From contig CM114271.1 in the NCBI GenBank assembly GCA_050084515.1, positions 10,292,001-10,356,000 of the forward strand: a DNA stretch of 64,000 bases. The letters are read 5' to 3'. The notes beneath the pieces were generated by a model. The model saw only the letters and a list, made by a program, of their open reading frames with translations, was not told the origin of the DNA and did not search any database. Positions 4,890 to 62,098 of the stretch are shown piece after piece. The position numbers were made by a program, and so were the translations under genes. This stretch comes from Blasia pusilla (Eukaryota). Positions within the stretch are counted from its first letter, which is position 1, and every line of letters starts with the position of its first letter.

Positions 4890-5350
4890 AAAATCCACTC
4901 ACTCTCTCATGCCAAACCAAACCCACTCTCCTTAATGAAAGGCCTCGATAAGTCATAAGGCAAATGAGAACCATAGCTCTGCCACCTTATGCCAAGAGGT
5001 TCAACAAAAAGAGAATGAACTCCAAAGCTCACTCCTCTTGTATGTATCCCTTCCTTGTTTCCAAGCTTTCTCCTTAGTGACCTATGCACACAGATCAATT
5101 TCTTAGCTCATAACTTATAGTGTAGGATCAAAGGAAACTTCCTAAAATATAAAGTCAATTAAGCTCACATTAAGAACTTACCCAACATAGTAAGTTTCTC
5201 AATTTGACTCCAAATGAGCCAAAAAAGAGAAATCTTCTCTCTCAAGTTACCCTAGTCCTAAGCTACTCATCCTCGACCTCATGAAGTTGTCCTTGGACCT
5301 CGTTAAAGGCACCCTACGGATCCTCCTCGATCAATATAAAAGATGTGACA
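4890..5350 (-). repeat. Family-3 LTR 'B' segment remnant
   Basis: Similar to 28913-29408 (CAAACCAAACCCACTCTCC...ACCATAGCTCT...). Ends AAAAGATGTGACA at 5350. Confidence 0.7.
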
Positions 5351-7037
5351 CCCTCATCAAGGTTCACGTCTCGCTTTTGCAACTCATGTCTCATTCATAA
5401 AACTCCAATGCTCTTCCATCCTAGTATGAGCCTACGAGAGTTTTGAGATTTTGCATTGACAAATATTTGGTTGTGAGCATCGCAACACACTTGAAAACAC
5501 TAGGAGAGTGGCTTTTGTTTAACATGAAATATATGTGAGAGCTTTGTTGTTCCAACATTATTGAAGCTATTTTGGTACACAATTATTTATGAGTGTAGAT
5601 GCCATGAGTGAATAAAATATCTTCTATTTCTGTATGTGTGAATAGTAATAACAATGTATGTTATCTAAAGATATGTATGCCCATGACAATTTAGGTTGCT
5701 ATATATAAGGGCTTGGAGAAATACCAAGTTGGTTTCAAATTCGAATCATTTTACAAAGTAAAATTACTCAAATTTCAAACCAACTTGGAAAATTTTAGTG
5801 GACTTTAAAGTGCCTATGGTGCACTCCATTTAGAATAATTCCAACTCAATGTTACTAGAAGCAAAAATGGAGTATAATCACCTTGGAATGAATGAGGACT
5901 ACACCGAGAAAATTCAAATGGGAGACAAAGAGAAAACCAACCAAAAAATCATTGGGCTCTTTACCACAACCTTTTGATCTCCCAAAAACTTCCCATAACG
6001 CTCGCTGTTTGGAAAAATAGAACAAAGGCCTCGGGTGTCTTGGGTTACAATCCCGCTGGATGTTCATCATCAAGGTAATTAACGAGTTCGAAAGCGATTA
6101 AATTTCACTGATTAACGAGTTAGAAAGCGATTTATTCGAACTTCCGGGGCAATAAGGCCACTCACTGCCGGAGTTGGGAGGCCCTCGGGAGTCGTGGCAA
6201 TGGCCAATGCCCATTTGAAGAAACGGGTACTTACACACGGCTCCCGTTTATGGGAACGGAAATTTTTAGGGACGTCCGAAAAAAAATTTTGTCCTCTTTC
6301 GGACGCAACCAATTTCTAAATTATTTTTTATAAAAAAATTTATTATTATTATTCAATAAAATCGATTCGTGTGGACTACACGAATCGATTTCCTCCGTCC
6401 CCGTATTTGTTCCCCGTCGGGAGGAAATGAGTGGCCCTAATAGTCTGAGTTTGCGGAAAGGTGACCCCTAACGTCCTTTGATCAATTGCCCACAAGATCA
6501 CAGGATGTGATGAAGGGTTTCCGTGACCTTTCAAGTCTTGAGGGCCGGGGATTTCATTTCGTTCGTTGGGCTTCACGGTTGGAGGGCAAGAACTCCATGG
6601 CAGCCGACCTGACCCTTGGTTCATGATTGATATGCGCATGCAATCGGACAGAAGATGCTAGTACTTGCCAGAGCAACAAGATATTTGGATTAATCTGGAG
6701 TAGTGGGATTTGGTGGTGAGAGCTGCGACGCTCACACACATGTACACAAACCCCTCAGCTGAAATCTGACAGGTGTATATCGATTCTAGATGAAATCAAG
6801 ACGTACAACCCAATCGGTGTGCATGGAATCTTGATAATCTGGCGACCACACGCGCATAGTGAGATCGAATACCCGTATCCTCAGGGCCTTGCTTTCGAGG
6901 CACTTTTGTGGTTGTGAGAACTGCCACATACACTCTGAAAGGATTTTTGGATTTCGCTTTATTGCACGTCCAGTAGCTCCACTGTACCACATGAGGGAGA
7001 GAAAGTGGCGATATCGAATTCGCCGTAATACCAATTA

Positions 7038-11161: not shown

Positions 11162-12155
11162 TAGTGTAATTGAAAGCACTCTTACACTTTGCACTAGTTC
11201 TTTCATATAAACCGTAGGATTTTGTAAATTATAATAGTATAAAAAGCATCGGGGCTAGCACAAGTCATAATGTAGATTATGTAGTGCCACCACCAACCAA
11301 CTTCTATATAGTAATCCAAAATGCAATTTTTTCAGCTACTTCTTGGTTTGACTATTGTCACTCAAATTCTTTCAAAACCAAGGTGGGGAAAGAATCATGC
11401 AAATAGATTAAATGGCAAGGAAAAAAAAGGGAAAATTAAATCCATGTTATTAAATATCTAATGAGTTTGGGACCCTTTGAGAGGGATAACAAGAAAACAA
11501 ATATTTATTATCACCTCTCTGTATAGGACACATGGGTTACAAGTTAAATGGAAAGAAGAATTTTTTTATGTAAGGATCGTAGAAATAGGAGTCCTAAAAA
11601 GACATATGTAACAAAAGTGAATTATTAAATAAGGAAAACTTTTAAACGGCTACTAAAGGAACGGGTCCTTCAATTTTTATTTTAAGGAAATATTTTGGAT
11701 ATTTATAGTCTCCGAGTCTAATTAAGCCTTTCTAATGTAGGGCGACAAAGAGATTACTAGATTAATAAGAGGACATTACTTGAGATTAATTTATTTATAA
11801 AAAAAATTTTAGATGTGGTGAAAAGTTTGTTTGATGATTTGTTGAGCTTGGGTGGATATATATTCGAGGCCCTAATGTGGCGGCCATACCACACTAGAAT
11901 GTGCAGCTAAAGAGAGTGAATGGACTCAGCAGCTAAAGAAAGTTGTCGTGCGCATACACATCGCTACACAACCCACATCGCTAGTCATATCTTTACACCA
12001 CACTACACCGATCTTCCTAACATACGGGTAGATCCACACATAAATGAAACATACTAACGTATATACACTGGGACCCCACAACAAAATCAAGAGTAGTAAA
12101 AACGGCTCATCCGGCCTAAACCTCCATTCATGAATCTACATCGGCATATCAAACT

Positions 12156-12562
12156 TGTTGGATTCTCAACATCCACTTCTCTAAGCACCATTAATCTGAT
12201 CAACCCCCTTGTAAGAGGAGAAGCCTAGATTGATGGTTCCGACTTAGATGTCGCAGGAGTCATAGTAATATGACGTAGGTGGTTTTAGGAGTAGCGTTAC
12301 TAGGTTTATCTAACCCTATATTGCATAGCATTATTTCTTCGTCTCTATTAATAGAAACAAAGAAAAATAGGTAAAAACCCTAGTTTTCCCGAGTAGTCAA
12401 ATAGTCGGGAGCCGCAGCGGTAGCGCATTCTCATATGTCAAGTTATCTCCATGTTCAGGTTCCATCAAAGCTCTTCTGTGAGCGCACGGACGGACTAGGC
12501 CACTTTGTATCTCTAAGTTTTGTAAAGATTTCAGTGATTTTGTCACTTTCTATTTTCTCACA
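12156..12562. repeat. Solo LTR (407 bp) inserted into the family-1 B segment
   Basis: TGTTG...TCACA, TSD AAACT/AAACC. The uninterrupted site CATATCAAACCACATCC is present in the 19.1-kb copy. Confidence 0.85.
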
Positions 12563-13234
12563 AAACCACATCCACCCTCTACTATGAGGGAATCCGGACG
12601 CTAGCACCCTAACTCCTACACATCCACACACGTCTATGCAAGAGGGGCACTCCTAAGGCTCAACATGAGAAAGATAGCTTGAGAAAGCCATCTCTCTCAC
12701 TCTTATACCCTTGGGAAGAGCCAAAAAGCTCTTTCCCCAAAAATAGCCCTCCCAATAGTAACGTGCGTGCACAAGTTACCAGGTGACCATTGACTCGATC
12801 AACGGATCACCTGATGGACTAAAACCAAAATAGAGAAATCGGCATAAACAACGTTCCCGACACATCAGACGTGTCGCCAAACTCATCCGACATCTTAGGA
12901 TGAAGTTACACCCACATAGCGAGTTGACTCTCTATATCGTCAACGCGATAGAACTCTACCTACATCGAAATAAGATGTGACAACTGTCGTGCGCACACAC
13001 ATCGCTACACAACCCACATTGCTGGTCACATCTCTACACCACACAATACCCATCTTTCCAACATACGGATACATCCACACATAAATTAAACATACTCACG
13101 CATATACACTAGGACCCCACAACCGCCCCCCTAGCTGGCACTTGGGTCCCCCCAACTCTAGATAGCACACACATATGCACTTGACAAGATCTCCTATCCT
13201 ATACATATCTAGCACCATTGGTGCCGTCATCCCC

Positions 13235-13300
13235 GCAACATTGCAACACTGTAGCTACCCGTCGTGTTGATCCCTCCAAAGAGATCTAACACTCTCGTAC
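13235..13300 (-). pseudogene. C5-DNA methyltransferase motif I remnant in the family-1 element
   Basis: Minus-strand RVLDLFGGINT (core 13292-13269), then frameshifted VATVLQ. It sits downstream of the protease and just before the PPT. Confidence 0.7.
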
Positions 13301-16300
13301 CCTACTCCAAACATAGACATGGCTCCACACCTGCCTCACAAGCTCGTTTGCACTCCACGCATCTCAACGCTTGTCCCCAACAATAATAAAGAAGCTCTGT
13401 ACCATGGGAAGAGACACCCACCCTGACATGTCTCTCCGTGGGACTATCCCCTACGGGAATGTCCTCCGCATGTATGCTCCTCTCCCCGAAAGCTCTTGAT
13501 CATAAAACACCACCTGTGAATGCTGCCAACGTGGTCACCGTATCCCCACGTGGTCAACCACCACTACTCCCTGCAAACTGCACCGATAGATGGCTCACCC
13601 ATCCATCACTTGATCGCCACCCTGGCCGATAAGAAACTATCTCCTCCCAAAAATCCAGAATGAAACCAAGAGGGTACAACATGGTACTCCCTACCAACAC
13701 ATCATACGAATCCGCAGGTGTCGTAATTGCGCGAGTGCGCACTATCCCACTATCCAACTCATGCTCTGGCTAGAGTCTAACCACCAACTCATGTTGAGTC
13801 ATGAACTACGTGGGTGATATGCCCCAAATAGAGGTCTATATATGAAAGGGACAATTGTTGATGTCCCCTTTCCGTAATCCCAACGCCAAACACGCCGTCT
13901 TCCCTAACATCAAGGGCTGCGCTCCTAAATCAAGTAGGATGCGCTGTGGGTGGTACATCGTAGCTATGGGACTAACCAAGCGAAAAACTCCTGGTTGGTT
14001 TTCCAACAACACCACACCTGGTGTGATCCTGGCTCGCTCAATGGTCGGCCGAGCTAGCATGTGTACCAACTTCGCCACCGCCGCATGCCATGACTTAGTG
14101 GGGGACATCCTGAGCTCTTGCTCCGAGGGCAAGTCCACCACCTCCTCAACTACCTCTGAATGAGAGGCAATCACCTCTCCATGCTCACATAACGTGGCGG
14201 CTAGCCGGAACACCTCCGCTGGTCCAACTCCTAACGTCGCCAACTCCAAGAACATGGTCAACACTGGCTCCTCCCAAGCCGGCATAGGAGTTTTCTCTCC
14301 AACTCCTCGTGACATCGATGCACATGTCCCACTTGTGGGCACTACCGGTCGTCAAGGCAGCATTGACGGTGTATGTAGTGCCTCAGACAATGTGAACGAG
14401 TGAGGAACCCCAGCGTGCCGCCCATCGGTCCCCTCTTGTGATTCAATCTCAACCCCACCTCTCGATGGCTTGGTTACTCTTGCAGCACCCCAAGTCACCA
14501 CTGTAGCACCTTCAACTTGAGCCGCACTACACATAAATCCCATCATCGCAGAATCCTCACCTGCGTCGTGGTAAGATGTCGAGGCTCGCGCCACACTAGC
14601 TACTCTCAGCTCCGCGCCTGCCTGCAACTGCATCATCGTCATGGCAGCAATCCTATGCTCCAATTGATCAATGCGCATAAGGAGCATTGCATTGGATGCA
14701 CGTCCTCCATCTCCCGTGACTGGTGATGGCACTCTTCCACCACGATCATCTACCACTTGATCTCCACCAACTCTCTTGCCCCCAAGTCCTATGCCAACCT
14801 CTGGACATACCTCCTGGCGAAGATTGTAACACCTATCCCTAGTGTGACCATATCGTTTACAATGATCACATTGCAATTGTGGTGGGGCCATCCTCTATGG
14901 CTACTAAGCAATCAGAGGGGCCCGTGGCCCTCTCCCATGTTGTGGGCAGTCCCTCTGCCTATGTCATCCACCAGACGTCCAACAAGCCAACCCTGGTCCC
15001 TACTGGGAAACATATGTGAGTACGGGCCATTGCCTCATTGGCTCATGATACCCGCCCTACTCTTTGGGCCCACTAGCCCATTCTTGTGGTACTGGTGCAT
15101 GTTGAGACACCTGTGGGTCTACTCCTACTCGTTGACCCGTTGAATCCCACGAAAAAACCATGGTCACCACCTGCTCCTCACTCATGTTGAGCTCTATCCA
15201 CTCAGACAACTCGGAGACCACCTTCAATGTGGGCTTCGCCATGTGAAGCAATATTGGATCCCAAACTCTCCTCCATAGCTCCTCATCTAGCATCCCGTAC
15301 CAATACTACACTGATTGGGCCTTAGTCATCCCATATGTGGCAAAGATCAAATGTCGCATGCGCATGAACACCTCCCTCAAACTCTCACCCGATCTCCATT
15401 GAAAATCCTCTAGACTCTTCAAATTGACGATGCATACACCTTGGTAGCTCTTCCCCAACTGTCAGAAGAACTCCAGTGTGGGACTGAAGTTGGGTGGCCC
15501 TCTATCACTAGAAGTCTTTGCCACATCGCCTGTCTCACTGCCCTCCTCTCCATCTAGTCTCCAAGATGATGATGTAGGTCTCTCTCCTCTCAGGATCCCA
15601 TCATATGCCTTGCGACCACTAGTGGATACATACCATGGTGCCCAATACATCCTCCAGGCATCGATCTCTACTAAATACAGCAATCGGAACTCCATGTAGT
15701 CATCCATCGGCGGACCCTCCAAGTGTTAGAACAACCCTCTCCATGCCATAAAAGGGTTGAACTGCGTAGGGGTCCGTATCTTATGGAATTCGCACCACGT
15801 GTCGAACTCCTGGATGAAATCATCTAGATCTATGGTGCCTACCGCATTTGAAAAACGTTGCATGCCCCGATGGCTCATGTCGTCTATCTCTATCCACGTA
15901 TCATTGTCCTTATCCACGATCTTGTCACCAGACCCGCTGTCTAGTGATGACGATCCAGCCACGCATGGGAGTCAAGGTGGTTCCTCACTCGAAACCCCTT
16001 GATACCTTACACCACTCCGTGTCACACCACTACTATTGCTCGTACTACCCCGTTCTTCCGAACCTTGGAAGAACACCGTGATGACAACCCTCTCTCACCC
16101 GCTCAAGCACTCAGACTCACCAAGAGTTTCCCACACTCCTCACTAGCTCACCTATGCTAATGCCAATCCCGTGCTGACACATCCGACCTCACGCACACTC
16201 AACACTTAGGCTCACTATGAGCCTCCCACTAACTCACCTAAACTACTGACACCCTTGGATCGTACACGCGACCCCTACTTGGAAATTTCCGTATATCCAC

Positions 16301-16877
16301 AAATATGCTATACATGAAAGGAGTCTACACTTGTCACCATCGCTACACCCATCTAACACCAAAAACTACCCGATACCCAACACTCTCAATCACATAAGAT
16401 AAGTGCGGGAAAAGAGACTTGAATGGATAACCTGATCACGCCCACCAACCTACTGCATCGTCAACACTCACTCCTCCATGTGGTACGGCAACCTCCGCAA
16501 CATGATACCCTCCTTGAACACACGTCAAACCTCCCGTCACTAGATATAGACCACCCATCGGCATCATCATACTCACACTCCATCAGCAACACCCCGTTGC
16601 AAACTCTTGGCGTAACTCAGCTTTCCTAACTACGTAAGCAGTTCCACCACATCCGCCTCCCAACCTGGTAACTCACGCTTACTCTGTCCCAACTCCTACC
16701 AGGTACCCTTGTTACCACCTTCAGTTCTACTTTGTCCCAACCTTACTATGTTCCTTCTCAATCATGCCTCTTTGCTTCTACTCACAATCATGTCCCCATG
16801 CGTGCGACCTCCTCACACATCGGCCGCATCACTCTGCACGGGAGCTCTTCTCGTAACGTGCCTTTCCCTTCTGTACT

Positions 16878-18097
16878 TGTAATGTACAAGTGTTTCTATT
16901 TTACAGTCGTTTTAATAAGTTTGATCCCCAAGAGGATCATTGTTTGATGAAAAGAGAGTTCGGAATTACAATTCTGTTGTAATAGTTGTATTTAAAGGTG
17001 TGTGAGTTATATTCAATGTCTTATCAATATCTTCTGATCTTTCTTAGTACCAAAGGATCTTTTCTCGATTCTCTCTAGTGGAATTGACAGCATGTTCAGG
17101 TAGATTTTCCTCTCGACATCAAGAAACCTCACAGAGATCTCAACACAAAAGCTGGCTTCTTCTAGTTTCGGAACTCAATCCGTCTCGACAGGTTACTCTC
17201 TGTCAAACAGATTTCCTACAACTCATGTTGATTATTTCACTGATGAGAAAGGTTCGTCTGATTCACTCTTCACTCTGCAGACCCAAAAAGAATACTCAGA
17301 CATAAGCATCGCACATCAGAATGAATGAATGATTGCTTTACTACTCCATCAAGAATGAGAAAGCTTCAAAGTGTATACAAGCTCGAGAGGGTACTTCTCT
17401 CTTGCTCGGACCATTCCTACAACATAAGGACTTCGTAAGAGAATGATGATTATGGCTTCTACCTTGCTTCTTAAATATTAGCTAGAATAGAAGTGATCCT
17501 AAGATTCGAAACGTTCTTGATGAAGCTAGTGTCTCTTCACTGTTTCTAACTACCTAGATCTATGGTTCTCTTAGCTTTTCCTATGATCCCTGGGAATCCG
17601 CAATACAAAACTATCCTAACTACCAATTTGATACAAAGGGTCGCGCCCTTTCCTAGTCTAACTGTTCTAACTATGTGTCGCTTGAAATCACAGTCCTTCT
17701 TAGCTTCGCTTCGCTGGGAAGTTTGGACTTCTTCTTCTTCCCTTGAGGACGAAGCTCTTCCTCTTGGTTTGAGGACGAAGTACTTCATGCTTCGTGCTTC
17801 GTGCAAGAGCGAAGTACTTCTTTCTTCTTTTCTTTGTGATGCTTCGTTATGTAGCGAAGCGCTTCAAAGACATAGCTTCATACATCTTTGTTGAGCTTCA
17901 TTAAGCTTCGTCATTGTGTTTTCCTCTCCTCTAAGGAAAATCCTTGATCTTCCATCTCTCTGCCTTGTCCCAGGAGCTTCGTGATTCACTCATTCTTCTT
18001 CATAATAATAAATAATCATATCAAAATCATAATATACAAGAGTCTTCGTTGAATAAAAAGATATATTCTTCAAGAGTACAAAATTGTGGGTATCACA
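16878..18097 (-). repeat. Solo LTR (1220 bp), family 4, nested in the family-1 element
   Basis: TGTAATGTACAA...GGGTATCACA with a perfect 5-bp TSD GTACT/GTACT. Termini are shared with 62131-63671. Confidence 0.9.
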
Positions 18098-19079
18098 GTA
18101 CTCTTTGGCTCCCACGTACTTAGCAAAGCCCTACCCCCATCCTAACTCTCTACAGACACGCGTCCCTATGGACGCACCCTCACTCCTTCTTCCCTACACT
18201 TGAAGCCCACCTGGCTCCCTCTTTACTCCTGGATGAGCCCTCCATGGCTCCCCGCTCTCCCTTCCTCCTTACGCGGCCCTTCCTTGCACGGTGCCCTATG
18301 CACCTTAACTCCACCTCAGTTCCCTGGACCCGCCACTCTTTCCCTGGTCCGTGCGCATCCTTATGCGCACACTCCCCAATCCGGCCCCTTCATCCCTCAA
18401 GACACACTCAACCCTCTCCCTTCCTTTGGCTGTCTCCGTCCGCAGATCCTTTCTCATGCCTCGTTTGGCCTATTTCTTGCCCGACTTGGCCCTCGTGGCT
18501 CCTTCATGCGCCCCCCGCGGCCAACCCCACACAGTGCCCTATGGATCCATAATGGCTCACACCCCTTTGACACCACCCACACCACATCCCTATGCGGCCC
18601 TATGTGGTCGCATCCTAGCTTTGTCGGACCCCGGACCTCAAACGCGGCTCCGCCTAAACCCGACTACCCGCCTTGCAACTCCCTGCTCTCGAATCCGCAG
18701 CCTTATGCTTACTTCCCGCTACTGTACAACTGCGCCCCCAACCTAAATGTTCTGACCTAACCTAATATGAGCGACTGCAACCTAGCCTAGCCGCGCTCAC
18801 AGTGGCTATGGTATTCCCAAAGCTTCTTTTTCTCCCGAAACTCACCGCTCACCCATCGATTGTACTCTCCGTGCTACACCTAAGCTACTACCGCTATATT
18901 CTGTTGCTGTCCCCCATCAATCCTCACCGTCAAGATCAAAGAAAACATGACAGCGCTTCCGCCCACGGACTCTCGAACAGAAAAATGCCAACAACAACAC
19001 CAACCAACGTCTCCAAGGCTCCCCAACCAGGGCAACTCGCCTGCCTACCTGAAACCAACAAATTCCCCTTGCCCCCTCG

Positions 19080-19093
19080 CATCTTTCTCATGT
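19080..19093 (-). promoter_or_regulatory. Self-priming primer-binding site of family 1
   Basis: 19080-19093 (CATCTTTCTCATGT) is the exact reverse complement of 19263-19276, which begins 27 nt downstream of a minus-strand TATAA (19307-19303). Confidence 0.8.
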
Positions 19094-19901
19094 AAAATCA
19101 AGAGAAGTAAAAAATGGCTCACCTGGCCTAAAACTCCACTCATGAATCTACATTGGCATATCAAACCACATCCACCCTCTACTATGAGGGAATCCGGACG
19201 CTAGCACCCTAACTCCTACACATCCACACACGTCTATGCAAGAGAGGCGCTCCTAAGGCTCAACATGAGAAAGATGGCTTGATAAAGCCATCTCCCTCAC
19301 TCTTATACCCTTGGAAAGAGCCAAAAAGCTCTTCCCCCAAAAATAGCCCTCCCAACGGTAACCTGCGTGCACAGGTTACCAAGTAACCATTGACTCGGTC
19401 AACGGGTCACCTGATGGACTAAAGCCAAAATAGGGAAATCGCCATAAACGATGTTCCCGACACAACAGACCTGTTGCCAACCTCATACGACATCTCAGGA
19501 TGAAGTTACACCCAAATAGCCCGCTGACTATCTATACCGTTGACGCGATAGAATTCTACCTACGTCAAAATAAGATGTGACAAAGTGAATGTAGGCTCTT
19601 GGACATAATGACGAGGTCAAGTGGCATTACTCAAATTTCAGCTTAAGTAATCGCCTTTTGGATTGTCAATTTCCCACAAGTGATCTAGTGATGACTTGAG
19701 GTTTCTCCTAATCACACGAAGTATAAGGCTTTGGTTGTTTTCCCATCATGTCTATTTTGGGATTAGAAGGGACCATTTCCTTCCTGAACGACATATGTGG
19801 AATAAGACCAGTATTAGAAGTATCTGTCATAAACCCCGCAAAATTTTGATGTTCTCTTAGTTGATTTATGATGGATGTGTTGATTCATACCATAGAGCCT
19901 T

Positions 19902-20644
19902 TGTCATGCGAATACACATCGCTATCAACATACACATCGGTTGTCATGCACACACATGTCTAACATCCATCTAGCTATAAATCCTAACATCTCTATGCAT
20001 GAACGACTGGACAACCCCAATATAAAGTTGAATACAAAGTGTAAACTCTCATGAAATCTGCAATCAACCGTGCTTCATCCAAACAGCCATACTCATGATT
20101 CTGATACGCACTGGTGTGACAGCAAGAGAAAGTATACACAAGGATTCCTAAAATGTGTGATCTCCTTATTGATCACTCCTAGCCCACTCTTCAAGAGAGA
20201 ATCCAGGCTCAATTCATGCATGTCGTAGTGTATCACGGATCCCAACAAGGGTCTGCAATCCTAAGGAGATGAGCTCCAAATGAGACTCATCCGAGGTATA
20301 CTCCCCTGGGCACCTCCATGGATGACCTATACACAGAGGTCATCTCCCTCCTACCAGGTCACTACCAACCTGTAATACACCCATACTAGCTCCCTAACAA
20401 CTACACATGTGGTCCCCTCATGAGACCAACTACCAACTAACCCACGACCCTATAGATCCAAGTGGAGCCGAGCCATACATGGGTGGGAAGGTCAACCTCT
20501 CCAAGGTTGCCACTCCTCATAAAGGGAAGGGGGACCTACACTTGTAGGTCACCTCCTAAGAGCAGGTCACATATGACCTCTCAAAATAGGGAAGTACAAG
20601 ACCCCTCTAAGGCCTGGATACTATCTCTCCCTACGCCTCATCTA
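19902..20644 (-). repeat. Family-2 LTR: A segment 19902-20019 + AT + truncated B segment
   Basis: Starts TGTCATGCG. B is nearly identical to 33002-33619. The end of A is the reverse complement of the sequence after the PPT at 22292-22331. Confidence 0.85.
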
Positions 20645-22331
20645 GTGAGGAGTCGACAGGGACTAGAGACATCCACGATGATGAGATGGTCTTGGAGTAC
20701 CTGCGCACTGGTGTCGTAGCAAGCACGGTGGGTGCTAGAGAGCGAGATCGAGTCCTACGGAGAGCTAGGAGGTTCAGGTGGGAGGGGACGCGTGTGGTTT
20801 AAGTCTGGGAGGATGGACGAGTGCGAATGGTGCCGCATCCTTCACAGCAAGCACGAGTTGTGAGACATGCTCACGAGGAGTTAGGGCATTTTGGAGTCAA
20901 GCGTACGTATTGCTTGATATAGATTCAATATTGGTGGTGTGGTATGCAGACTGATGTTAAGCAGTTTGTAGCTAGATGCATTGTATGTGATAGGGTGCGG
21001 GCATCGTTCAATGCTCGACACCACACTTGCTTCCTTTACTGATCATGGGGTTAGGGTATCGCTAGAATTTAGACTTTGCAGGGCTTTTACCATTGATGGG
21101 ATGCCATAGTCGGTATGTGTTGGTCATGGTGGAGCACTTCTCCGGATGGATTGAGTTGGTAGGGTTGCCGGATAGGTCGAGTGAGGGAGCGGCTTATGCA
21201 TTTCTTGATAGAGTGCTTAGTCACTTTGGCGCACCAGTAGAGGTGTTGATGGACTAGGGTACTGAGTTTAGGGGTGACTTTCAGGCCTTGTGTGATTAGG
21301 CATTGATAGATCATCCTATGACTTCTCTAGATCATCCGGAGGCAGATGGTTTGGGAGAGAGAGTTGTGCAAACGGTGAAGAGAGGATTGCACAAGTATGG
21401 ACTGCAGAGAGGACACTTGGGAGATTGGGACCTACAGTTTCCGTGATTGGCGATGAGTTACCGCTTCAGTCGGCAGGCATCCTTGGCATCATTTTCACCA
21501 TATTTCTTGCTCTATGGGAGAGAGCCAGAGTTATCGGTGTCGATTCGACGAGATGTAGTTGAGGTACTTGACCTCGAAAATCTAGACGTATGTATGGGTG
21601 CGAGCGTGTTCTTAGTGGGCTGAGCTCTTTTGGAGAGTCATGCCTATGGCATTTGAGAACCTGGCTATCTCTCAACATCACGATACTCTGAGGTACGTGA
21701 CTACGCCTGGAGGAGGCTATCAACTAGGGATTCGGCGATTCCATCCTGTCCATTATGTCTATCTACAGCACGCAACGCCGATGACATTGGACGTGACAGC
21801 GGGACGCACTGTTCTGCGAGTGCGAGAGATTTTAGTTTCAAGAGTCCTTGTTTTAGAGGGTCGTGATGGTACCGTTTGGAAAGATCATGTGTGTAACTGT
21901 GCGCCATGTCATCTTCCCAACGTAGATGGGAGGATTGATCTGAGCTTGGGAGTTGTTCCTCCAGGCTTGAGATGCATGTTGTGTGGGTCTGCCACAGGCG
22001 TAGCCACGATGCTACTTTGTGATGGGTGTTCTCGAGGATGGCATATGTCGTGTTTGACGCCACCTCTCGACTTGGTTCCTCAGGGACGTTGTCTTTGTCC
22101 CAGATGTACATAGGTGTGATAGGTAGATACAAGATGACTCTTGATGTTATGGATTGCAAGAAGGTGACTAACGATGGGGTGACACAGCACCCGACCTCCT
22201 CATCTTAGCACTAAAAAATTGCATAGCATTTAGACTTGTTTTGTAGGCTATCTTGAGTTAGAGGGACCTAACCACCAGCTAGGGGGGCAATTCGAGTTTT
22301 CTAGTCGTTCATGTGTGGAGATGTTAGGATT
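20645..22331 (+). mobile_element. Gypsy integrase (HHCC, DDE core) with C-terminal PHD finger, PPT and start of a family-2 A segment; degenerate
   Basis: HEELGHFGVKRTY...CIVC, LDFAG, ADGLGERVVQTVK. ORF 21640-22113 ends CMLC-x9-LLCDGCSRGWHMSCL-x11-CLCPRC (C4HC3). PPT AGGGGGGCA at 22281. Confidence 0.9.
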
Positions 22332-22339
22332 AATCTGAG

Positions 22340-27955: not shown

Positions 27956-28487
27956 CCTTGCACAACAGCTTCAGCACTGCACTCCTGCCCTCTCACATCG
28001 GTGATCCGCTCAACTCAGGGAATCTACGTGTCCGTAGGGTTTAGGGTGCAGGGAATCTTTTGGAATCCTCCTCAAATGAGCTCCGTTTTTTGTCCCGTTT
28101 TTATTGTTGGACTCAGATTTTTGCGATCTTTCCAACATTCATCTGATTTGGTCCAGAATCAAGCACTCCTCACTCAAAATCAGCAACGAAGTGCCCATGC
28201 ACTTACTGACTTGCCCACACTCAATCGTGTCACGATTGACACAGATTTTCTCACCAAAATTATCTCAGGAATTCTGTCCCCACAATCTGATCCTCAATTG
28301 CTCCACTCTTGAGCAACTCCATCAGGATTGAGAAGCCTCCCCCTCTTCAAATCCTGTCACGTTTGTCGCATTGCACAGATTTCTCAATTTTGAACATCTC
28401 ACTTTGATTTCAGCAATTCTTCTGCCCCATGTCCTTCCGCATGGTCAGGATACACTAGCTTTCAATTCTTGCAAATTACTCAGGAAA

Positions 28488-28560
28488 TAGTGGTCTCTTG
28501 GGAATAAACTTAATACTTTTCGATTAAAGGAGTATCTTTTTCCTTGAGTTGTACATTATA
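28488..28560 (+). repeat. Terminal fragment of a family-4 LTR
   Basis: Reverse complement of 62131-62200 (...TTGAGTTGTACATTATA). Confidence 0.75.
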
Positions 28561-28800
28561 GACACAAAGTGGAGTGAGATACCGAGGGGTTTTGAGTGAG
28601 GAGCTACCTCGACTTCCATCCGTGGCTGGATCCTCATCACTAGACAGTGGGTCAGGTGATGAGATTGCGACGGAGGCAGTATCACTTGGCAAGAGATGAA
28701 GAATATGGGTCATCGGGGCATGCGTCGTTTCTCAGGTGCGGTGGGCACCATCGACTTAGACGACTTCATCCAAGAATTTGACACATGGTGCAACTTCCAC
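28561..28800 (+). mobile_element. Gag N-terminal fragment of the family-1-like Gypsy
   Basis: HRGMRRFSGAVGTIDLDDFIQEFDTWC matches the 15962-15726 minus-strand gag. Confidence 0.85.
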
Positions 28801-31800
28801 ATATCCAGCACATATACATCGATGTCATCAAACATACATACAAATACACACAATCCCATGCTAACTCATGGAATCTACACAACGAGACGAGAAGTACCAA
28901 AATATCTCCAATAAATCGATCAAATCTCACACCAAGCTCTCCATGGTGTGCACACTCTCTCTCTTGTCAAACCAAACCCACTCTCCTAATGAGAGGATGA
29001 GATTACACACACAAGGCAAGGAGGACCATAGCTCTTCCGCCTCATGGCAAGAAGTTCAATAAAGAGAGAATGGGCTCTCAAGCTTTCTCTCTTAGAGGTA
29101 TATCCCCTTCCCTCTCCCAAGCCCTCTCCACGGTAACTTATGCTTGCACGTCACCTCCTTGGCTCTTGAGTTGCTGTAGCGGATCAAGGGCCACTTCCAA
29201 AAGTGGAAAGTCAACTATATTCCAAATGGAAACTTACCTAAAATAGGAAGTTTTTCTATATGGCTCCAAATGAGCCAAAACGAAGGGGAAAGGTGCTCTC
29301 ACAGGTTATTCATGGCCTTAGCAGTCATCCTCGACCTCTTGAGACGTCCTCATGTTTCTCTTAAGGCGCTCTACTATATCTTGTCGATCTATCCTAAAAG
29401 ACATGACAGATATCGTGCGCATACATATCATTACACAATATACATCGTAGTCACTAAACATACATACAAATACACACGATTCCATGCTAACTCATGGAAT
29501 CCACACAATGAGATGAGAAGTACCAAAATATCTCCAATCTTCCCCCTAATTGGTGGTTAGGTCCCTCTAACTCTAGATAGCCATCTATACCAACCTACCA
29601 TGACATACATCTCTCGGACACTATGAGCAAAAAGTCAGGTGCTCATGTGGCCCCATCTTTAGTTGCCTTCTTGTCATCCATGTCACAGACACAAGTCAAA
29701 ATCTACAACTATATATTCTATGTATATGTGGGGCACATCCATCAACCCCGAGGATCCCTAGTGAGAGGTGGCGTCAAACATGTCATATGCCATCCTCTCG
29801 AATATCCATCACAGACTGTCATAGTAGCTGCACCACGGGCAGAACCACACAACATACATCACAAGCCTACAGGAACTACTACTAATCTTGGATCAACTAT
29901 ACCGTCAATGTTAGGAAGGTGACATGGTGCACAGTTATGCACATGGTCCTTCCAAACCATACCATAGCGTCCGTCTAACAAGAGAACATCAGGTGGAAAA
30001 ATCTCACGCACTCTCAAGATAGTGCACCGTGTAGTTACATCCAATGTTGTGGGCGTTGTCTACTACAAGTAGACATAGTCTCCCTAATGAAACCTCCAGA
30101 TAGTAGGTCAGTAACCACCTCCCGGAATAGTAGCATACCTCAACGTATCCCGAACCTACACTATCGCCAAGTTTTCAAACGCCGTGGGAATCACTCTCCG
30201 AAACAACTCAACCCTCTCAGAATATGCTCACATCCACACATCAAGATCATCAAGGTTCAACACCTCACCAGCATCTCGACAAATGGCCAAAGGTAAATCT
30301 AGCTCTCTGCCATAAAGTAGCAAGTACGATGAGAAAGATGCTTAGGATGCCTGCATGTTGAATCTTTATCCCATTGCTAACCATGGAAATTGGAGGTCCC
30401 AATCTCCTAGGTGACCTCTCTACAAGCCATACTTGCGTAAACCTCTCTTCACCGTATGCATAACCCTCTCCGCTAGTCCTTCCGCCTCAGGATGATCTTG
30501 CAAAGTGGTGTAGTTGTCGATCAGTGCTTAGTCACACAAGGCCTGAAACTCCCCGGAAAACTCTATACCCTGGTCTGTCAACACCTCAACTGGTGTGTTG
30601 TAATGACTCAACACTTGATCTAGGAAGGCATACACTACTCCCTCACTCGCTTTGTCAGGCAATGCATCCAAATCTATCCACTTCGAGAAGTGCTCCACCA
30701 TCACCAAGACTATGGCGCTCCGTCAAAGGTAAAGATCTTGCAAAATCCAAAATCCATCTATAATCTAAACCCATGATTGGAAGTGGATGCAACTGTGGAG
30801 TTGGAGCATTGAACAATGCTCGGACCCGATCACACACCATGCACCTTGCAACAAATTGCAGAACGTCAGTCTGCATGCCTCGCCGCCAATATTGTATCTA
30901 GAGCAAGCTATATGTCCGCTTCACTCCAAAATGACCCAACTTCTCATGGGCATGACACACAAAACGTGCTCTCTATGAAGGATGAGGCACTATAATCCTC
31001 CCAAACTCGGAACACATGTGTCTCCTTCCACCAAAATTTTCTAGCTCGCTGTAGGATCCGATCTTGCTCTCTAGCACTCATTGTGCTCGCAACGCTAGCA
31101 GTACGCAGGTACTCGAAGACTACTCCATCCTCGTGAATGTCTCGACCACCTGTTGTCTCCTCACTGGCCTCTACATCTAAGGACTCTCCGTCATACCTCT
31201 TCATCGAAGTCTCAACAATCTGGCTCTCCATACCCAACAAGCCCAAATAGGCTGACGCGTGCCATCATGGCATCAACTCCTCATCACTCTCTCCATGCCA
31301 TCGAGCTCCAATTGCATCTTGCTGACTCGGATATGGGTTACGGCTCAAACCATTTGCATCATGGTTGAACGTCTTAAGTCTATGCACTACTTGGAAATCA
31401 TACTCGTGCAACAACAAAGCCCACCTCGCAAGCTTCCCTATAAGCTTGTCGGACTCCATCAACCACTTAAGTAATTAATGATCATTAATAATGGTAAAGG
31501 GATTTTCGAATTAACAACACCTGAAATGCACGATATCCCATACTACAACCAAACACTCACCCTCATATGAGCTATACTTCACATCTACAACGTTTTTCAA
31601 GTGACTGGCGTAAGCCACCACGAACTCTCTACCCTCATTGTCATGCTAGGCAAGCATGGCTCCAAGCCCCAACATGCTCCAGTTTGTATGCAACTCAAAA
31701 GGATGCCCCCTGATCAGTCTCCTCAATATGGGCGTGGACGTCAATCTGTCCTTCAACAGTTGAAATGCTCCCTCTTGCTCATCCCCACCAATGCCACTCA

Positions 31801-32252
31801 TGATCCACCTTGGTTAGCAAGGTTAGCAATTTTGCAATCGAACTAAAATCCTTCACGTATCGTTGATAGAAGTTTTCCAATCCCATAAATGCATGAACTC
31901 AACTCACATCTGTAGGGCTTGGAATGCGGGAAATAGCCTCTACATTCGTCTACTGCACACCAAGCCCCCTGGGTATATCGTATGACCCAGGTACTCAATC
32001 TGGTCGTAAAAGAACTTGCACTTGCATGGATATAGCTTCAACCCGTGGAACTCCAATTTTTGAAACACCTCCTCCAAATCTCGCTCATGCTCCTCAATCG
32101 TGGCGCTAAAGACTATGATGACATCAATATAACATCTAGCAAAATCCAGACCTGCCAAGATCCTATCCATGACCCTCTGAAACTCGTCCGGGGCATTTTT
32201 TAACCCAAATAGTAAGGACCTATCGGACTTTGTTTGCCGATTGATAGGTTGG
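28799..32252 (-). mobile_element. Gypsy family 3, 3' half: RT-RNase H-integrase-PHD-PPT, then permuted A-nn-B-A repeats
   Basis: RT FGLKNAP...CYID (32230-31940), RH KLARWAL, IN CMVC/LDFA, PHD CMLC...VCDG...WHMTCLTPP (~29860-29725), PPT 29547-29539. Repeats: A 29411-29536, GA spacer, B 28913-29408, A ~28799-28910. Confidence 0.88.
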
Positions 32253-32900
32253 TGTAATGTACAACTCAAGCAAAAGGTACTCTTTTTTATTGCAAAATAT
32301 TAAGTTCGTTCCCACGAGATCACCGTTTCCTCAATAAAGAGAGGTTTTATAAGAATGATAAGGAATTTCTTTTTCACTAAGCACTTCACTAGCTGCAATG
32401 ACTCGGTTTTCACTAGTACAAAAGATCAAATGGTTTTCTTCCCTCCAGGCACAACTCTTCTAAAGTACAAGGGAAGAATCCTGCGAATCTTGGATGCCAA
32501 ATTTCCAACGAAGACCTCAAAGAGACCTCAAGAAGGTGGCAACTCACCCTACTTTCAGAAGTGAATGTGTCATGGCAGGTTACTCACTATCTAATAGCTT
32601 TCCTATGCTCTTCCTGATTATCCTCTAGAATCCTGAAACCAAAGACTCAACTCTCATCCATACCGCAGCCCAATAAGATTGGCATTCAACTCCGCACATC
32701 ATAAAGGATGAATGAGGATACTTTTCCTGCATCAAAGAGTGGAGGAAACTAGAAAGTAGTACAAGATTTAGAGTGCACTAAACTCTTCGGCTTGGATCAT
32801 CCCCAAAGACTTCTTCACACAATCAACAAAAATACTAGAAACTCAAGACACAAGGGAATGACACCGTGCTCTTCTGCTTTACTCTTTAAATAATCTCTTT
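32253..32900 (-). repeat. Partial family-4 LTR interrupting the family-3 RT
   Basis: TGTAATGTACAACTCAAG start, collinear with 62131-62800. Confidence 0.85.
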
Positions 32901-32987: not shown

Positions 32988-33619
32988 CATCTCCTTAGGA
33001 TATAAAGTTGAATACAAACTGTGAACTCTCATGAAATCTGCAATCAACCGTGCTTCATCCAAACAGCCATACTCATGATTCTGATACGCACTGGTGTGAC
33101 AGCAAGAGAAAGTATACACAAGGATTCCTAAAATGTGTGATCTCCTTATTGATCACTCCTAGCCCACTCTTCAAGAGAGAATCCAGACTCAATACATGCA
33201 CGTCGTAGTGTATCACGGATCCCAACAAGGGTCTGCAATACTAAGGAGATGAGCTCCAAATAAGACTCATCTGAGGTATACCCCCCTGGGCACCTCCATG
33301 GGTGACCTGTACACACAGGTCACCTCCCTCCTAGCAGGTCACTACCAACCTGTAATACACCCATACTAGCTCCCTAACAACTACACATGTGGTCCCCTCG
33401 TGAGACCAACTACCAACTAACCCACGACCCTATAGGTTCAAGTGGAGCCATACATTGCTGGGAAGGTCAACCTCTCCAAGGTTGCCGCTCCTCATAAAGG
33501 GAAGGATGACCTACAATCGTAGGTCATCTCCTAAGAGCACGTCACATATGACCTCTCAAAATAGGGAAGTACAAGACCCCTCTAAGGCCTCGATACTATC
33601 TTGCCCTACCCCTCATCTA
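32988..33619 (-). repeat. Family-2 5' repeat (B segment) with self-priming PBS 32988-33001
   Basis: 33002-33619 duplicates 20022-20644. CATCTCCTTAGGAT is complementary to 33238-33251 (1 mismatch) and to 20258-20271 (exact). Confidence 0.82.
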
Positions 33620-34091
33620 CCATTACACCTTCCACCTTCTTGCTTTGATTTTCTTGCTTAAAAGAGGGGGAAAAATCCTTTAAGTTAGCCAAATGCATCG
33701 GATCAGATACTCTCAATGTTATGAAGATTTTGCAAGGTTCAAGTTGAATCACATAAATAATTCAGTCCAGACTAATGGAATGGATAGGCTTTCCAAGACG
33801 TGACACAAGAAGTTAAATTTCTACAAAATTGCTCAAAAGATCGATTACTTGTTGTAGTTATTTGATGGACTCAACTCTCTTCTGTTCGATTTCTACTTAA
33901 TTACAGCATTTGAAAAGATTATGGCTACATGTTGCCTACACCATGTTAGGTTGCATGTAGCCAAATCTAAAATGACGAGGGGCGTTGTTGAAGTACACAG
34001 GTCTAAATTCTTGAAAACCATGAAGAACATCCTTAATGTGGTTGTGCCATCCTGTAAATTGAAAGTGAAGCTAATTCAAAACAAACAAAAA

Positions 34092-37050
34092 AATAGTAAG
34101 GTGCGCGTGCAATGCACGATGTACGTAAGGTGGTAAAGGTTGTGGGTATTTTCTTCGATGTACACACGGATATGTGCGGTGGGATGCTAGTAGAGGAAGA
34201 TATTGGTGATTTGTTTGTAGCCATGAGAGAAGTAGAAGATCTTAATATCAACCATGTCATTGCTCTTGCCTCTCATTGGCATCCTAATGATGCAAAAACT
34301 ACTAAGGTTCTTGTAATATAATTACAAATTATATTTCATCCAAGTATTTCTTTACATACTACATTTCGTTTGTATCTTCCTTGTTTGAATGTTCATTGCT
34401 TCCAACGGTAATGTGGATGGAACTTCTTTTCCCTACTCTACATAATGCTATATACAATTGACCATGAGAAAATACATCAATAGGCAAGTAAATGCTAACC
34501 TTTTGCAAATTTTGACCTTGAGGCTTATTTATAGTCATAGCAAAAGTTGGGCAAATAGGGAATTGAAACCTACGTAAATCAAATGGCAAACCAGAATCCG
34601 ATGCAATCAATGGGATACGTGGAATGAAAACTCGATCTCCAATATTCTTCCCTCTGATGATTTCAGCATCTATGCAACGTTGCATAAATCCACGAATCAC
34701 CAATCTCGTTCCGTTTGCTAACTTGTGCTTGTGACCCATTCATGTTTCGTAAGAGCATGATTGGTGCACCAATCTTCAAATTTAAATAATGCGGAGGTAG
34801 TCGAGAAGGCAAGCATGTGTTCAAAAATTTTGTTGGATGGATATGGCTTATCCCCTCATTTGGAATAGAGTTGACGCTGAAGTAAATATGCTCCTATACA
34901 CAATATGTAATGCATTCGTGATAAAAAAATAGTATGTTGGTACAGAAAGATAGTTAAAAAAAACCTAAATTCTAAAGCCTAAGAGAAAAAATCCATGAAG
35001 AAGATGTATGCAAGTTAAAAGATTACCTCTCTTGGAAACCCAAATATAATATGTACATTTATGTCATCAACATCTTTATTTCTTAGAGTCAAAAGAGTTG
35101 TATCTCTCAAGAAACCAATGTCATGGAATTGGCAAGGAGAATTGCCATAGATCAAATAAATAAGATTAGATAACTTATTACTATTCGTAATAATTTCAGA
35201 TGGTAATTGTATGAAATCTTCCCCCACATAAGGGTGCAAAGATACACGACCCTCTTCCACTTCCAATAACCAATCAGAAAAACCTTGTTGTTCAGCACGC
35301 AATTAACCTTCCAACCTTTAAACTTGCATGTTTGTTGTCAACTTCTTGACTTTACATTAGACCGAATAAATGATCTCTTTATGGTAGCTTGGATGATTTG
35401 TGGCTGATCCCCATGACGAACAACTGGCAACACTTCACGAAAGTCGCCACCAAATATGATAAGTTTTCTGCCAAATGGTATTTGCCCTAGATCATCTAAA
35501 ATAACTCCCATAACATCTTGTAAAGTGCGATTCACATCCTCGAATGCATGATGATGAGTCATAGGTCCTTTGTCCCATATAATGAGCATTGCTTCACAAA
35601 TTAAGCATGCTCCATTATTATCGACTAATAAACTATAAATGACAGAGGAAAATAAATTAGAAGTTGTAATAATTGGACTAATTAAAGTTTATGTATCAAT
35701 AGAATTTCATGTCAAGTGGTTAATGACACTTACTTGCAAGTAGAGCTCTCATGACGATTGATGGGGATCTTGAAACGAGAATGTTTTGTATGTCCTCTGT
35801 GCTCTAGATAAAACAGTTATTCCAGATAATGCTACAACCAATGCTATACCCCTTAAAATTCCTTACAATTGCAAGGAGAAGATTATATAGAAATGTCTTT
35901 CCCGTCCTACCTTGATCATCGATGAAATTATTTTTTGAAGATGATGGAGCATTTAAGCTTATTTGATTAAGTTCATCATGTGTAGCATCCCAAATAACAC
36001 GTTTTCTTTCATTCAGACATGCTTCTCCAAATTGCACTTGCTGAAATAATTCTTCCGTATCAATAATAGTTCTTGTTTCTCCAAATATGAATGTGAATGA
36101 AGGCTTTGGAAATTAACTTGGGGCATGTTAGGAAAGTTAGATAGTCTCTTTCCTTGATCTTGTGAATAATAATGAACTTCTAATAATACATTATTAATGA
36201 TATCATCATCAATAGGAAGATTAAGAATTCATGTTTTCTGCAATGGAACAGTTCCGGAATCATGTGAAGGTTGAATGTATCTCTCTTCCCCATGAATAAC
36301 ATGGACTTGTAGCCTCCAAGTCCTTTGAACGGTATTCCGGGATGCCAACATGTTTCACCGTAGTTAAATAATAGAACAAAGTGTAATGGAATGTATATTT
36401 CATTGAGGTCAGATATATGCCTCATCCCTCCTTCATGCAATCGTATAATTATGTTACGATGGTCAACGTGTTCGCTTCCATCACTTGGCAAAATAGCAGC
36501 AACCTCAGAAGCAGTTGGTAAGTTATAACGCTTTGCATGAAGATCTCTCAGTCTTATTTGCCTTGAGGATGATATACATACAAAGATCACTTGCTTCAAA
36601 TGTCATATGACGAAAGATCTCAACATATGGATTGCATTGATGTAACATGTCTTGTAGCCCTTTCAAGATGTCTACATTAATATCAAAAAATATACACATA
36701 TTTCTTACCCGATTCTCCAATTTATTCGCAATATTATGAATATAGAGTTGAGCAAATTGGGAGTGGCCTCCTATATGAGGATGTAAGGGTTCAATAGAAT
36801 GATAGATGCCGCCTTGGACCCTAAAGTGTGCAGTGCCACCAACTTGTTCATTTACATACACTTGAGTAGATGCAACTTGAAGTGTAGAATTGTAAGCTCG
36901 AGCATGTGTAAAAAAATGAAGACTTCTAAGACCAACACTAGAAATCAACGATTTCAGGAATGGAGGAGACGCTTTCTAGAGGGGTAATTGTATTCTCTCA
37001 TGGCCTCAATATGTGCCGTATGATGATTCACTAAACTTTGTACCTTTGAC
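34092..37050 (-). mobile_element. Degenerate Helitron (RepHel N-terminus and PIF1 helicase; central Rep region deleted)
   Basis: FAQLYI, YNLPTASEVAAI, GRTGKTFLYNLL, IIWDK, FGGDFREVLPVV, QFPICPTFAMTINKPQGQ, VFSHGQLYIALCR. 3' hairpin CGTGCA-A-TGCACG at 34106-34118 next to a mutated CTAG. Confidence 0.9.
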
Positions 37051-47960: not shown

Positions 47961-47974
47961 GACTTCATGTAGAG

Positions 47975-61330: not shown

Positions 61331-62098
61331 TGTCGTGCGTATACATATCGCTACACAACCCACATCCCTGGTCACATCTACACACCATAAAATACCGATC
61401 TTTCCCAACATACGGGTAGATCCACACATAAACGAAATACACTCATGAATATACACTGGGATCCCACAACAAAATTTGAGTAGTGAAAATGGCTTACCCG
61501 GCCTAAAACTCCACTCATGAATCTACACCGGCATACCGAACCACATCCACCTTCTACTATGAGGAAATCTGGACGGTAGCATCCTAGCTTCTTCACACCC
61601 ACACACGTACATGCAACAGAGGTGCTCCTAACGCTCAACATGAGAAAGATGGCTTGAGAAAGTCATCTCTCTCACTCTTATACCCTTTGGAAAGAGCCAA
61701 AAGGCTCTTCTCCCAAAAATAGCCCTCCCAACGTTAATCTCTATGCATAGGTTATCGGGTTACCGTTGACTTGGTAACGAGTCACCTGACGGATTAAAAC
61801 CAAAATAGGGAAATCGTGATAAACAACGTTTCCAACGCAACAGACTTATTGCCAACCTTATCCGACATCTCGGGATGAAGTTACACTCGAACAACTCGTT
61901 GACTCTCTATGCTGGCAACGAGTCATCTAACGGACTAAAACCAAAATAGGTAAATCGTCATAAACAACGTTCCCAACGCAACAGACTTATTGCCAACCTC
62001 ATCCGACATCTCGGGATGAAGTTACACTCGAACAACCTGTTGACTCTCTATGCTATCAACGCGATAGAACTCTACCTACGTCAAAATAAGATGTGACA
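61331..62098 (-). repeat. Family-1 solo unit (A-ac-B) with an internal 141-bp tandem duplication, inserted in a related gag
   Basis: TGTCGTGCG...AAGATGTGACA, TSD AGAT/AGAC (the empty site GAGTAGACCCAC is seen at 15125-15114). Duplication 61779-61919/61920-62060. Confidence 0.9.

Follow-up and report, generated by a model that had tools for sequence, protein, structure and literature searches.

Split direct repeats with an A-nn-B-A 3′-end in Ty3/gypsy-order retrotransposons of a Blasia pusilla contig and related loci: boundary rules and a proposed permuted long terminal repeat

The window analysed here is a 64,000-nucleotide (nt) stretch of Blasia pusilla DNA (NCBI GenBank assembly GCA_050084515.1, contig CM114271.1, positions 10,292,001 to 10,356,000 of the forward strand). 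It contains several families of retrotransposons whose two ends are unequal. The inserted unit reads B ... PPT-A-nn-B-A, where A and B are repeats, PPT is the polypurine tract and nn is a 2-nt spacer; it has TG at its start and CA at its end, with a 4-bp target duplication on either side. Repeat B stands alone at the 5′-end, a feature that the first-pass annotation of the window had overlooked. Identical direct long terminal repeats (LTRs) at both ends, as expected of Ty3/gypsy elements, are not found; instead, the 5′-end is B and the 3′-end is A-nn-B-A. Split direct repeats in the DIRS-like order A-coding-B-A-B are present both in the window families and in related loci. We consider it probable, with appreciable room for doubt, that A-nn-B-A is the regular 3′-end of split-direct-repeat gypsy elements, generated when the ends of the complementary DNA (cDNA) are joined and the joined form is reopened by integrase. 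The structure is firm, and it is from the structure that we infer the mechanism. Repeat copies are numbered below from the 5′-end of the element (B1, A1, B2, A2).

Related loci (80) were retrieved from metagenome contigs with an alignment of six relatives, and the resulting rows were sorted with A and B probes from three sequence groups (I, II and III). An A-B-A block downstream of pol is found in 25 of the 80 rows, about 20 of which are distinct. One further row (L041) has A-B with a 5′-truncated last A, another (L045) has B-A after a truncated pol, and three have A-B followed by other sequence or by the contig end. Fifteen rows (about 14 distinct) contain a single A with unrelated sequence next to it, four contain an A that is cut by the contig end or otherwise truncated, and nine contain the 5′ B only (plus one stray B). 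A is found directly upstream of the 5′ B in none of the 27 rows that have a 5′ B. In window families 1, 2 and 4, the 5′ B is not followed by A. The arrangement recurs in all three sequence groups, at 41–65% pol identity, in independent insertions that each have their own 4-bp duplication. Among 19 elements scored for target duplications flanking the B start and the last A end, 12 have perfect 4-bp duplications, six match at three of the four positions and one has none. In two of these calls (L014 and L025) the script had chosen a later motif and the homologous end was used, while window family 2 was re-read because the script was off by one.

Within an element, A1 and A2 are about as alike as B1 and B2 are, which would be expected of two pairs that arose in the same cycle. 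Single-A copies (B...PPT-A, with no B2-A2) end exactly at ...ACA and are nearly as frequent in the sample as A-B-A copies; the three with both ends on their contigs (L079, L007 and L014) have perfect 4-bp duplications. Elements of this lineage also lie near one another in one case, where a reverse-oriented group III A-B-A block (L020:3038-3513) precedes a group I element, ending about 220 nt before its 5′ B.

The repeat boundaries coincide with replication landmarks. The G-run of the PPT directly abuts A, with no indel, in all 15 group I loci, and A starts within 0–3 nt of the end of the G-run in the window families. At the A|B joint, ...ACA is separated from TGTCA... by 2 nt in every one of the 21 loci and likewise in window families 1 and 3 (23/23), and the two spacer letters vary (AC, GC, GT, AA, AT and TC). 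The B start and the A end form terminal inverted repeats (TGTCATG / CATGACA). The second A, which follows B, has its full start in 16 of 21 loci, and four more deviate by no more than 3 nt, as judged by eye. The first-pass annotation had deduced a conserved mechanism rather than chance nesting from the window alone, and this deduction is borne out by the three groups, the independent insertions, and the boundaries at the PPT, the self-primer site and the TG..CA ends. The spacer between CA and TG, whose length it had proposed to check, is never variable, and the A start after B does track the PPT-adjacent sequence. It had also proposed that the dinucleotide at the B|A junction equals the one next to the PPT of the same family. 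As letters, the matches are present (GT/GT, AT/AT and AT/AT), but they do not amount to a separate rule, since the A repeat itself begins with the junction dinucleotide, as set by the PPT.

Immediately downstream of the 5′ B, the first 9–16 nt are the exact complement of a site within B in 13 of 24 elements, each match being equalled in at most 6 of 500 shuffles. In seven group I elements, the complementary site lies 31–33 nt after TATA[AT]A. Outside group I, the script found the strict motif in L015 only (33 nt); in L038 and window family 1, a TATA-like motif at a similar distance was read by eye. The other elements with the complement are L075, L076 and window family 2. The letters of this primer-binding site (PBS) differ among groups I, II and III and window families 1 (14 nt) and 2 (11 nt). 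The complement appears to be a signature of self-priming, as in Tf1/sushi and Tcn1 elements, with a putative transcript start placed from the TATA motif and the complementarity. A tRNA-primed PBS was dropped as a candidate once the self-primer complement had been found. About 20 nt after the PBS, an 8-bp hairpin is found in L020 (4023-4082) and at ten other loci (alignment A2, columns 20–27 with 38–45). Its support, counted on a structure drawn up by eye, is modest: 88.6% of the cells are paired, with two compensatory pairs, and 5–6 of 500 shuffles score as high. It was not predicted by RNAalifold.

The second joint, B|A, behaves differently. It was characterised by comparing the end of B2 with the B end at the 5′ copy. 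In the 14 group I elements, it is blunt (B end followed by A start) in seven, 2 nt short in three and extended by one base in two; one element has about 6 extra bases and one lacks about 8 bases. Indels at the joint occur in 7 of the 14 rows, against a median of 1 of 14 across 12-column windows of the alignment. Only 18 of 730 such windows, in three places, reach seven indel rows, and those at the PPT|A and A|B joints have none (0/14). On a tree of A1+B2, elements with the same joint type do not group together (8 changes, where shuffling gives a mean of 7.6), and the type that is 2 nt short requires at least three origins on well-supported branches. In group II, an exactly blunt joint occurs in none of six loci, and the joint of L032 is longer by about 17 bases. 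In L041, which is outside the 14-element set, B is joined to the last ~29 nt of A only, yet the target duplication is perfect. At the B|A joint, the end of B is ragged and the start of A precise, unlike at the invariant A|B joint.

Because A starts at the PPT and B ends at the PBS, the reverse-transcribed LTR would, by ordinary rules, be A+nn+B. U3 would then comprise A, nn and the first ~160 nt of B, with R-U5 predicted as the rest of B. The integrated element starts at the B start (TGTCA...) and ends at the A end (...ACA), and these two neighbour each other only at the CA-nn-TG inside an A+nn+B LTR, while the B|A joint places the U5 end next to the U3 start. Taken together, these junctions would make the integrated element a circular permutation of [A nn B]-PBS...PPT-[A nn B]. 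In the proposed cycle, ordinary reverse transcription would yield the A+nn+B LTR, and the two cDNA ends would then join (B|A), as at a 2-LTR-circle junction. An end-to-end template jump of the growing plus strand is favoured for this step over two-sided nibbling before ligation, because the joint is exact on the acceptor side (A start) and ragged on the donor side (B end). Integrase would next take the CA-nn-TG of the 5′ LTR as two processed ends, and the 5′ A would thereby be moved to the 3′-end. Nicks after both CAs would give recessed CA-3′OH ends with 2-nt 5′ overhangs, like normal processed ends, which would account for the 2-nt spacer. The model specifies what the LTR consists of, distinguishes a joint that is copied from one that every cycle makes anew, and gives the position at which integrase must cut. 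Whether a whole lineage, from charophytes to liverworts, requires cDNA end-joining and integrase reopening at an internal palindromic CA-nn-TG in its normal cycle is a broader proposal, which we regard as quite possible but stop a little short of calling probable. If true, the provirus would correspond to the reverse-transcription product in circularly permuted form, integration would necessarily pass through the joined-ends form, a dead end in retroviruses, and the lineage would be a natural bridge between LTR elements and DIRS-type architecture.

Several points weigh against the permuted-LTR model. The joined cDNA ends are deduced from integrated copies alone. A double-stranded 2-LTR circle would have two identical CA-nn-TG sites, and a cut at the other one would give B-A-B...A, which is seen in 0 of 27 rows; the model consequently needs an asymmetry, at which we can only guess. 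The commonest joint variants (loss of 2 nt within ATAT, gain of one A or T) could be products of replication slippage after insertion. The three RNA runs described below yielded no usable transcript starts or ends within B, which leaves R unmapped. In the remaining 11 of the 24 elements examined for a PBS, mostly decayed ones, the complement is only 6–8 nt long, and no PBS complement was found in window family 4. The single-A copies may be A1×A2 recombinants or a direct product. Finally, 22 of the 80 rows have no probe match and are unclassified.

Sequencing reads of the same species label (one whole-genome DNA run and three RNA runs) were mapped to positions 11800-19700 of the window at 85% likeness. 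Summed DNA depth over the A and B bins is ~170–950, against 6–7 in the bins of 18136-18927, which suggests that the family is highly repeated and very abundant in this genome. Of the DNA reads that pass the A end, 618 continue at 11941 into a B-start-like consensus and 1754 continue at 11943-11944 into varied sequence, a split that is expected for A1 as opposed to terminal A. An estimate of the ratio of A-only to A-B-A copies from these two counts was set aside for want of the corresponding counts at A1. Another 67 DNA reads connect the B end to A position 42. The apparent joints 19094->12083, 12150->19239 and 19580->11941 were left uncounted as circle or LTR joints, since mosaic mapping of A1/A2 or B1/B2 explains them equally well. 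RNA first mates map mostly to the plus strand across the internal region and A1. In most stranded libraries, plus-strand first mates indicate minus-strand RNA, which would be the sense of the element. Loose RNA ends at 12977 and 13013 (agreement 0.96–1) show that expressed relatives are read across the A1|B2 joint, apparently in this sense.

Other ways of arriving at the same repeat order have to be weighed against these data. The B|A joint might be inherited rather than remade: templated copying could rebuild split repeats, as has been proposed for DIRS, PAT and Ngaro elements, from an RNA that spans B2 into A2, with the internal A-nn-B serving only as template for the repair of incomplete ends and without end-joining. 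The repeat order is indeed identical to that of DIRS-type split direct repeats (available text of PMC5890265 and PMC4157794), and an internal complementary region (ICR) is described as essential in DIRS-1 in the available text of PMC7192593. Some RNA reads continue beyond the A end into varied flanks (loose ends at 11944, X18 and X19), and both family 1-type copies in the window have the same joint, 2 nt short. We nevertheless regard templated copying as unlikely. Given that the PBS adjoins the end of B1 and the PPT the start of A1, A2 would never be copied by ordinary strand transfers, and no route was found from such an RNA to a linear DNA with a B start and an A end. Indels are concentrated at the joint, and the distribution of its types does not reflect the element tree. 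An AATAAG, read by eye, lies inside B, downstream of the presumed transcript start.

If the LTR were B+A (TG...CA), with A1 an extra internal copy and the 5′ LTR having lost its A, the terminal inverted repeats at the B start and A end, which carry the target duplication, would fall into place. This is very improbable, however, as the 5′ B is followed by the PBS and never by A in the same 27 rows and in window families 1, 2 and 4, there is no purine tract before B2, and A starts exactly at the PPT. The LTRs of a new copy must match, hence a systematic loss of the 5′ A cannot be ascribed to decay. A DIRS-like element that integrates from a circle by a tyrosine recombinase, without an integrase, would share the repeat order and nothing else; we give this hardly any credence. 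No Phage_integrase match was found in the full internal region of L023, a complete related element, or in the window copies, whereas Integrase_H2C2 and rve domains are present, and 18 of the 19 scored elements have 4-bp duplications that are perfect (12) or match at three of four positions (6). Tyrosine recombinase elements are not known to make such target duplications. Chance nesting, local tandem duplication or an assembly artefact might be suspected in a window that is a dense nest of elements and in which family 2 carries an inversion, but the same order and boundary rules in ~20 distinct loci from other assemblies, together with the DNA depth over the A and B bins, leave this explanation almost no weight. 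A TRIM-like reading, with A as LTR and B as internal region, was rejected: B is repeated at the 5′-end, and no PBS or PPT is located at the B edges.

By their sequence, the elements are best assigned to Ty3/gypsy-order retrotransposons of a lineage that carries a DNA methyltransferase (DNMT). The Ty3/gypsy pol order of reverse transcriptase (RT), RNase H and integrase is found in window family 3 and in relatives. A search with a 155-aa family 2 open reading frame (ORF) returned long proteins named from Marchantia, Calypogeia and Riccia, as well as metagenome proteins, and the closest named relatives appear to be liverwort proteins. These relatives carry PF00145 (C5 DNA methylase), RVT_1, RNase H and, in some cases, integrase and PHD domains. 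PF00145 lies within pol in relatives P0001 and P0013 and in L023, which has DNMT, RT, RNase H, integrase and PHD between its repeats. No Pfam DNMT match was found in the window copies. Family 2 retains ~104 aa of the N-terminal DNMT region (38% identity over 104 aa, E = 4e-16), from which it passes straight into RNase H; it is an internal-deletion derivative. In families 1 (13124-19093) and 2 (22332-24400), both on the minus strand, a stretch containing (I/L)DLFGG aligns to the N-terminal DNMT region of the relatives; RNase H follows next, the remainder of the DNMT and the entire RT being deleted. A search with the DNMT part of P0013 for named Klebsormidium relatives returned only nine unnamed proteins.

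The features of the window families are collected in Table 1. In family 3, stop-as-X translations match RVT_1 (1e-15), RT_RNaseH (6e-22), Integrase_H2C2 (2e-12) and PHD (2e-5); the rve match is weaker (6e-7, 30.2 bits) and falls below the curated Pfam cut-off of 32.6. A1 and A2 share 87.7% identity across 114 nt, and A2, which is missing roughly its final 13 nt at the 3′-end, adjoins an unrelated plus-strand gag fragment. By analogy with families 1 and 2 and the related loci, B2 would comprise the 3′ part of U3, R and U5. A repeat unit ending in ...TTGTACATTA(C/T)AG is present three times in the window, at 28476-28799 (plus), 32253-32852 and 62131-62744, and one such unit runs into the gag fragment that adjoins the truncated A2.

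Table 1. Coordinates of the retrotransposon features in the window (positions of the 64,000-nt stretch; arrows follow the orientation of the element).
Feature	Position	Strand	Remarks
Family 3 internal region	29548..32300	-	RT (5′-truncated near 32250), RNase H, integrase zinc and core domains, C-terminal PHD finger
Family 3 PPT AGGGGGAAG	29539..29547	-	Direct reading
Family 3 A1 with leading AT (29538-29537)	29411..29538	-	A1 proper 126 nt, 29536-29411
Family 3 2-nt spacer TC	29409..29410	-	Between A end and B start (TGTCATG); sequence reading
Family 3 B2, 496 nt	28913..29408	-	Starts TGTCATG; 70% identity with the B copy 5350->4896
Family 3 AT (28912-28911) and A2 (28910 to ~28799)	28799..28912	-	Sequence reading
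Family 1 B1, sole repeat at 5′-end	19094..19582	-	Starts TGTCAC; target duplication ACTT upstream (19586-19583)
Family 1 PBS, self-primer type	19080..19093	-	14 nt, exact complement of a site inside B; reached in 0/500 shuffles
Family 1 internal region	13133..19079	-	gag-like ORFs, CX2CX4HX4C zinc knuckle read in translation; no RT
Family 1 PPT AGGGGGGCG	13124..13132	-	Sequence reading
Family 1 A1 with leading GT	12985..13123	-	Ends ...CACGACA
Family 1 spacer GT (12984-12983) and B2 (12982-12083)	12083..12984	-	B2 with a 408-nt foreign insert, 12155-12562
Family 1 GT (12082-12081), A2 (12080-11944), target duplication ACTT (11943-11940)	11940..12082	-	
Family 1-like B-GT-A, no A upstream	61331..62098	-	Flanks GTCT/ATCT (3 of 4)
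Family 2 B1 (33627->33000), target duplication AAGG upstream (33631-33628)	33000..33631	-	PBS next, 32999-32988
Family 2 inverted segment	20645..22334	+	3′ part of integrase, PPT 22281-22289, AT, first ~45 nt of A1
Family 2 B2 (20644->20020), A2 (20019->19902), target duplication AAGG (19901-19898)	19898..20644	-	
Family 4 5′ B, minus strand (5350->4896), adjoining plus-strand B-end-AT-A (~5498-5688)	4896..5688	.	

On the minus strand, the order is PPT-AT-A-TC-B-AT-A for family 3, at the coordinates given by the first-pass annotation, and PPT-GT-A-GT-B-GT-A for family 1 (13132-11944), also in agreement with it. Its account of family 2 needs amendment: PPT-AT-A and B-AT-A are both present, but the A-nn-B-A order is not intact, the former being on the plus strand and the latter on the minus strand. 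Position 22281, given as the start of A, is the start of the PPT, and A begins near 22290-22292. Its caveat that the junction AT of family 2 could come from the primer end was well placed, since the 5′ B copy (33000) itself ends in ...TATAT and the AT may therefore belong to B. Comparison with family 3 shows that the segment from 20645 to ~22331-22334 is inverted. One breakpoint is clean and lies within pol, and at the other ~70 nt have been lost (the remainder of A1, nn and the first ~9 nt of B2); the inversion could be a real rearrangement or an assembly error.

In family 1, B1 is followed by unrelated sequence and not by A, and A1 and A2 share 88.5% identity. Its internal region has no Pfam match at E<=0.01, the gag and zinc knuckle having been recognised by eye. 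Families 1 and 2 both have gag with a zinc knuckle and no RT, and family 1 is a non-autonomous derivative. The 408-nt insert in its B2 is missing from B1, and one read joint skips 12150-12571. Its DNA depth bins sum to ~890–950, and RNA first mates over it are mostly minus strand in the three runs, opposite to the reads of the element itself. The insert is probably a separate small, abundant and expressed repeat. The B-GT-A at 62098-61331 fits a ‘solo’ remnant of B1×B2 recombination. Elsewhere in the window, at 218-2835, 34362-36975 (minus) and 47939-49051 (plus), copia-type RT/integrase ORFs were recognised by eye, along with ORFs resembling Helitron/PIF1-type helicase. No tRNA genes were found in the window.

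The arrangement is of a known but barely described kind. KnitGypsy-Dnmt3 of Klebsormidium nitens has a Gypsy-type pol with an internal C5 DNA methyltransferase, and its repeat order A-coding-B-A-B is described as ‘the same as that of a DIRS retrotransposon’ (de Mendoza et al., 2018; PMC5890265, Figure 4c legend). The window elements share that order, as B...A-B-A, with the element as presented in the available text. The host there is a charophyte, whereas the nearest named proteins here are from liverworts; a PHD finger has been added, and window families 1 and 2 are internally deleted and have no RT. The likeness is one of domain content and repeat order. In the available passages of PMC5890265, no PPT, PBS, CA-nn-TG or target duplication boundaries and no mechanism are given, although the supplements may hold more. 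A 2026 preprint mentions ‘streptophytes (Gypsy-DNMT3)’. Our literature search found no description of a liverwort Gypsy-DNMT element, no account of boundaries or mechanism, and no integrase-type split repeats beyond the 2018 paper, with the same reservation about its supplements. What is new here are the boundary rules, the self-primer and the permuted-LTR model. DNMT-carrying gypsy elements, with an added PHD finger, are extended to relatives of liverwort-named proteins. Annotation is affected as well: an LTR finder that looks for a pair of equal LTRs will call such elements wrongly.

Split direct repeats have hitherto served as a distinguishing mark of retroelements with a tyrosine recombinase, and there is still debate about the way in which they are regenerated. 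PAT, Ngaro and some DIRS-order elements are described, in the available text of PMC4157794 and PMC7192593, with repeats A1-...-B1-A2-B2, the two outer sequences recurring side by side within the element. The elements of this study combine that order with a DDE integrase, TG..CA ends, a PPT and 4-bp target duplications, and each repeat boundary is tied to a replication landmark (the PPT, the self-primer PBS or the CA/TG ends). Elements of the Tf1/sushi group and the plant Tcn1 clade have a PBS complementary to the 5′-end of their own RNA instead of to a tRNA (Neumann et al., 2019; available text of PMC6317226). Unlike the elements of this study, whose putative start was placed from TATA and complementarity, they are presented there with ordinary LTRs and a chromodomain.

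The canonical Ty3/gypsy features of gag, protease, RT, RNase H and integrase in this order, a PPT, a PBS beside U5, TG..CA ends and a short target duplication are shared; the difference lies in the unequal terminal repeats, B at the 5′-end and A-nn-B-A at the 3′-end. In retroviruses, cleavage by integrase of a palindromic LTR-LTR junction is in print for human immunodeficiency virus 1 (HIV-1) and foamy virus (available text of PMC1905944 and PMC1180852). According to these sources, the U5 end is joined to the U3 start in the retroviral 2-LTR circle, and integrase is able to cut a palindromic CA...TG internally, much as is proposed here. The joined ends form the palindrome in retroviruses, and the circle is mostly a dead end. 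In the split-repeat gypsy elements, by contrast, the palindrome is located inside the predicted U3, the joined ends (B|A) would not be the cut site, and the permuted form would be the regular integrated form.

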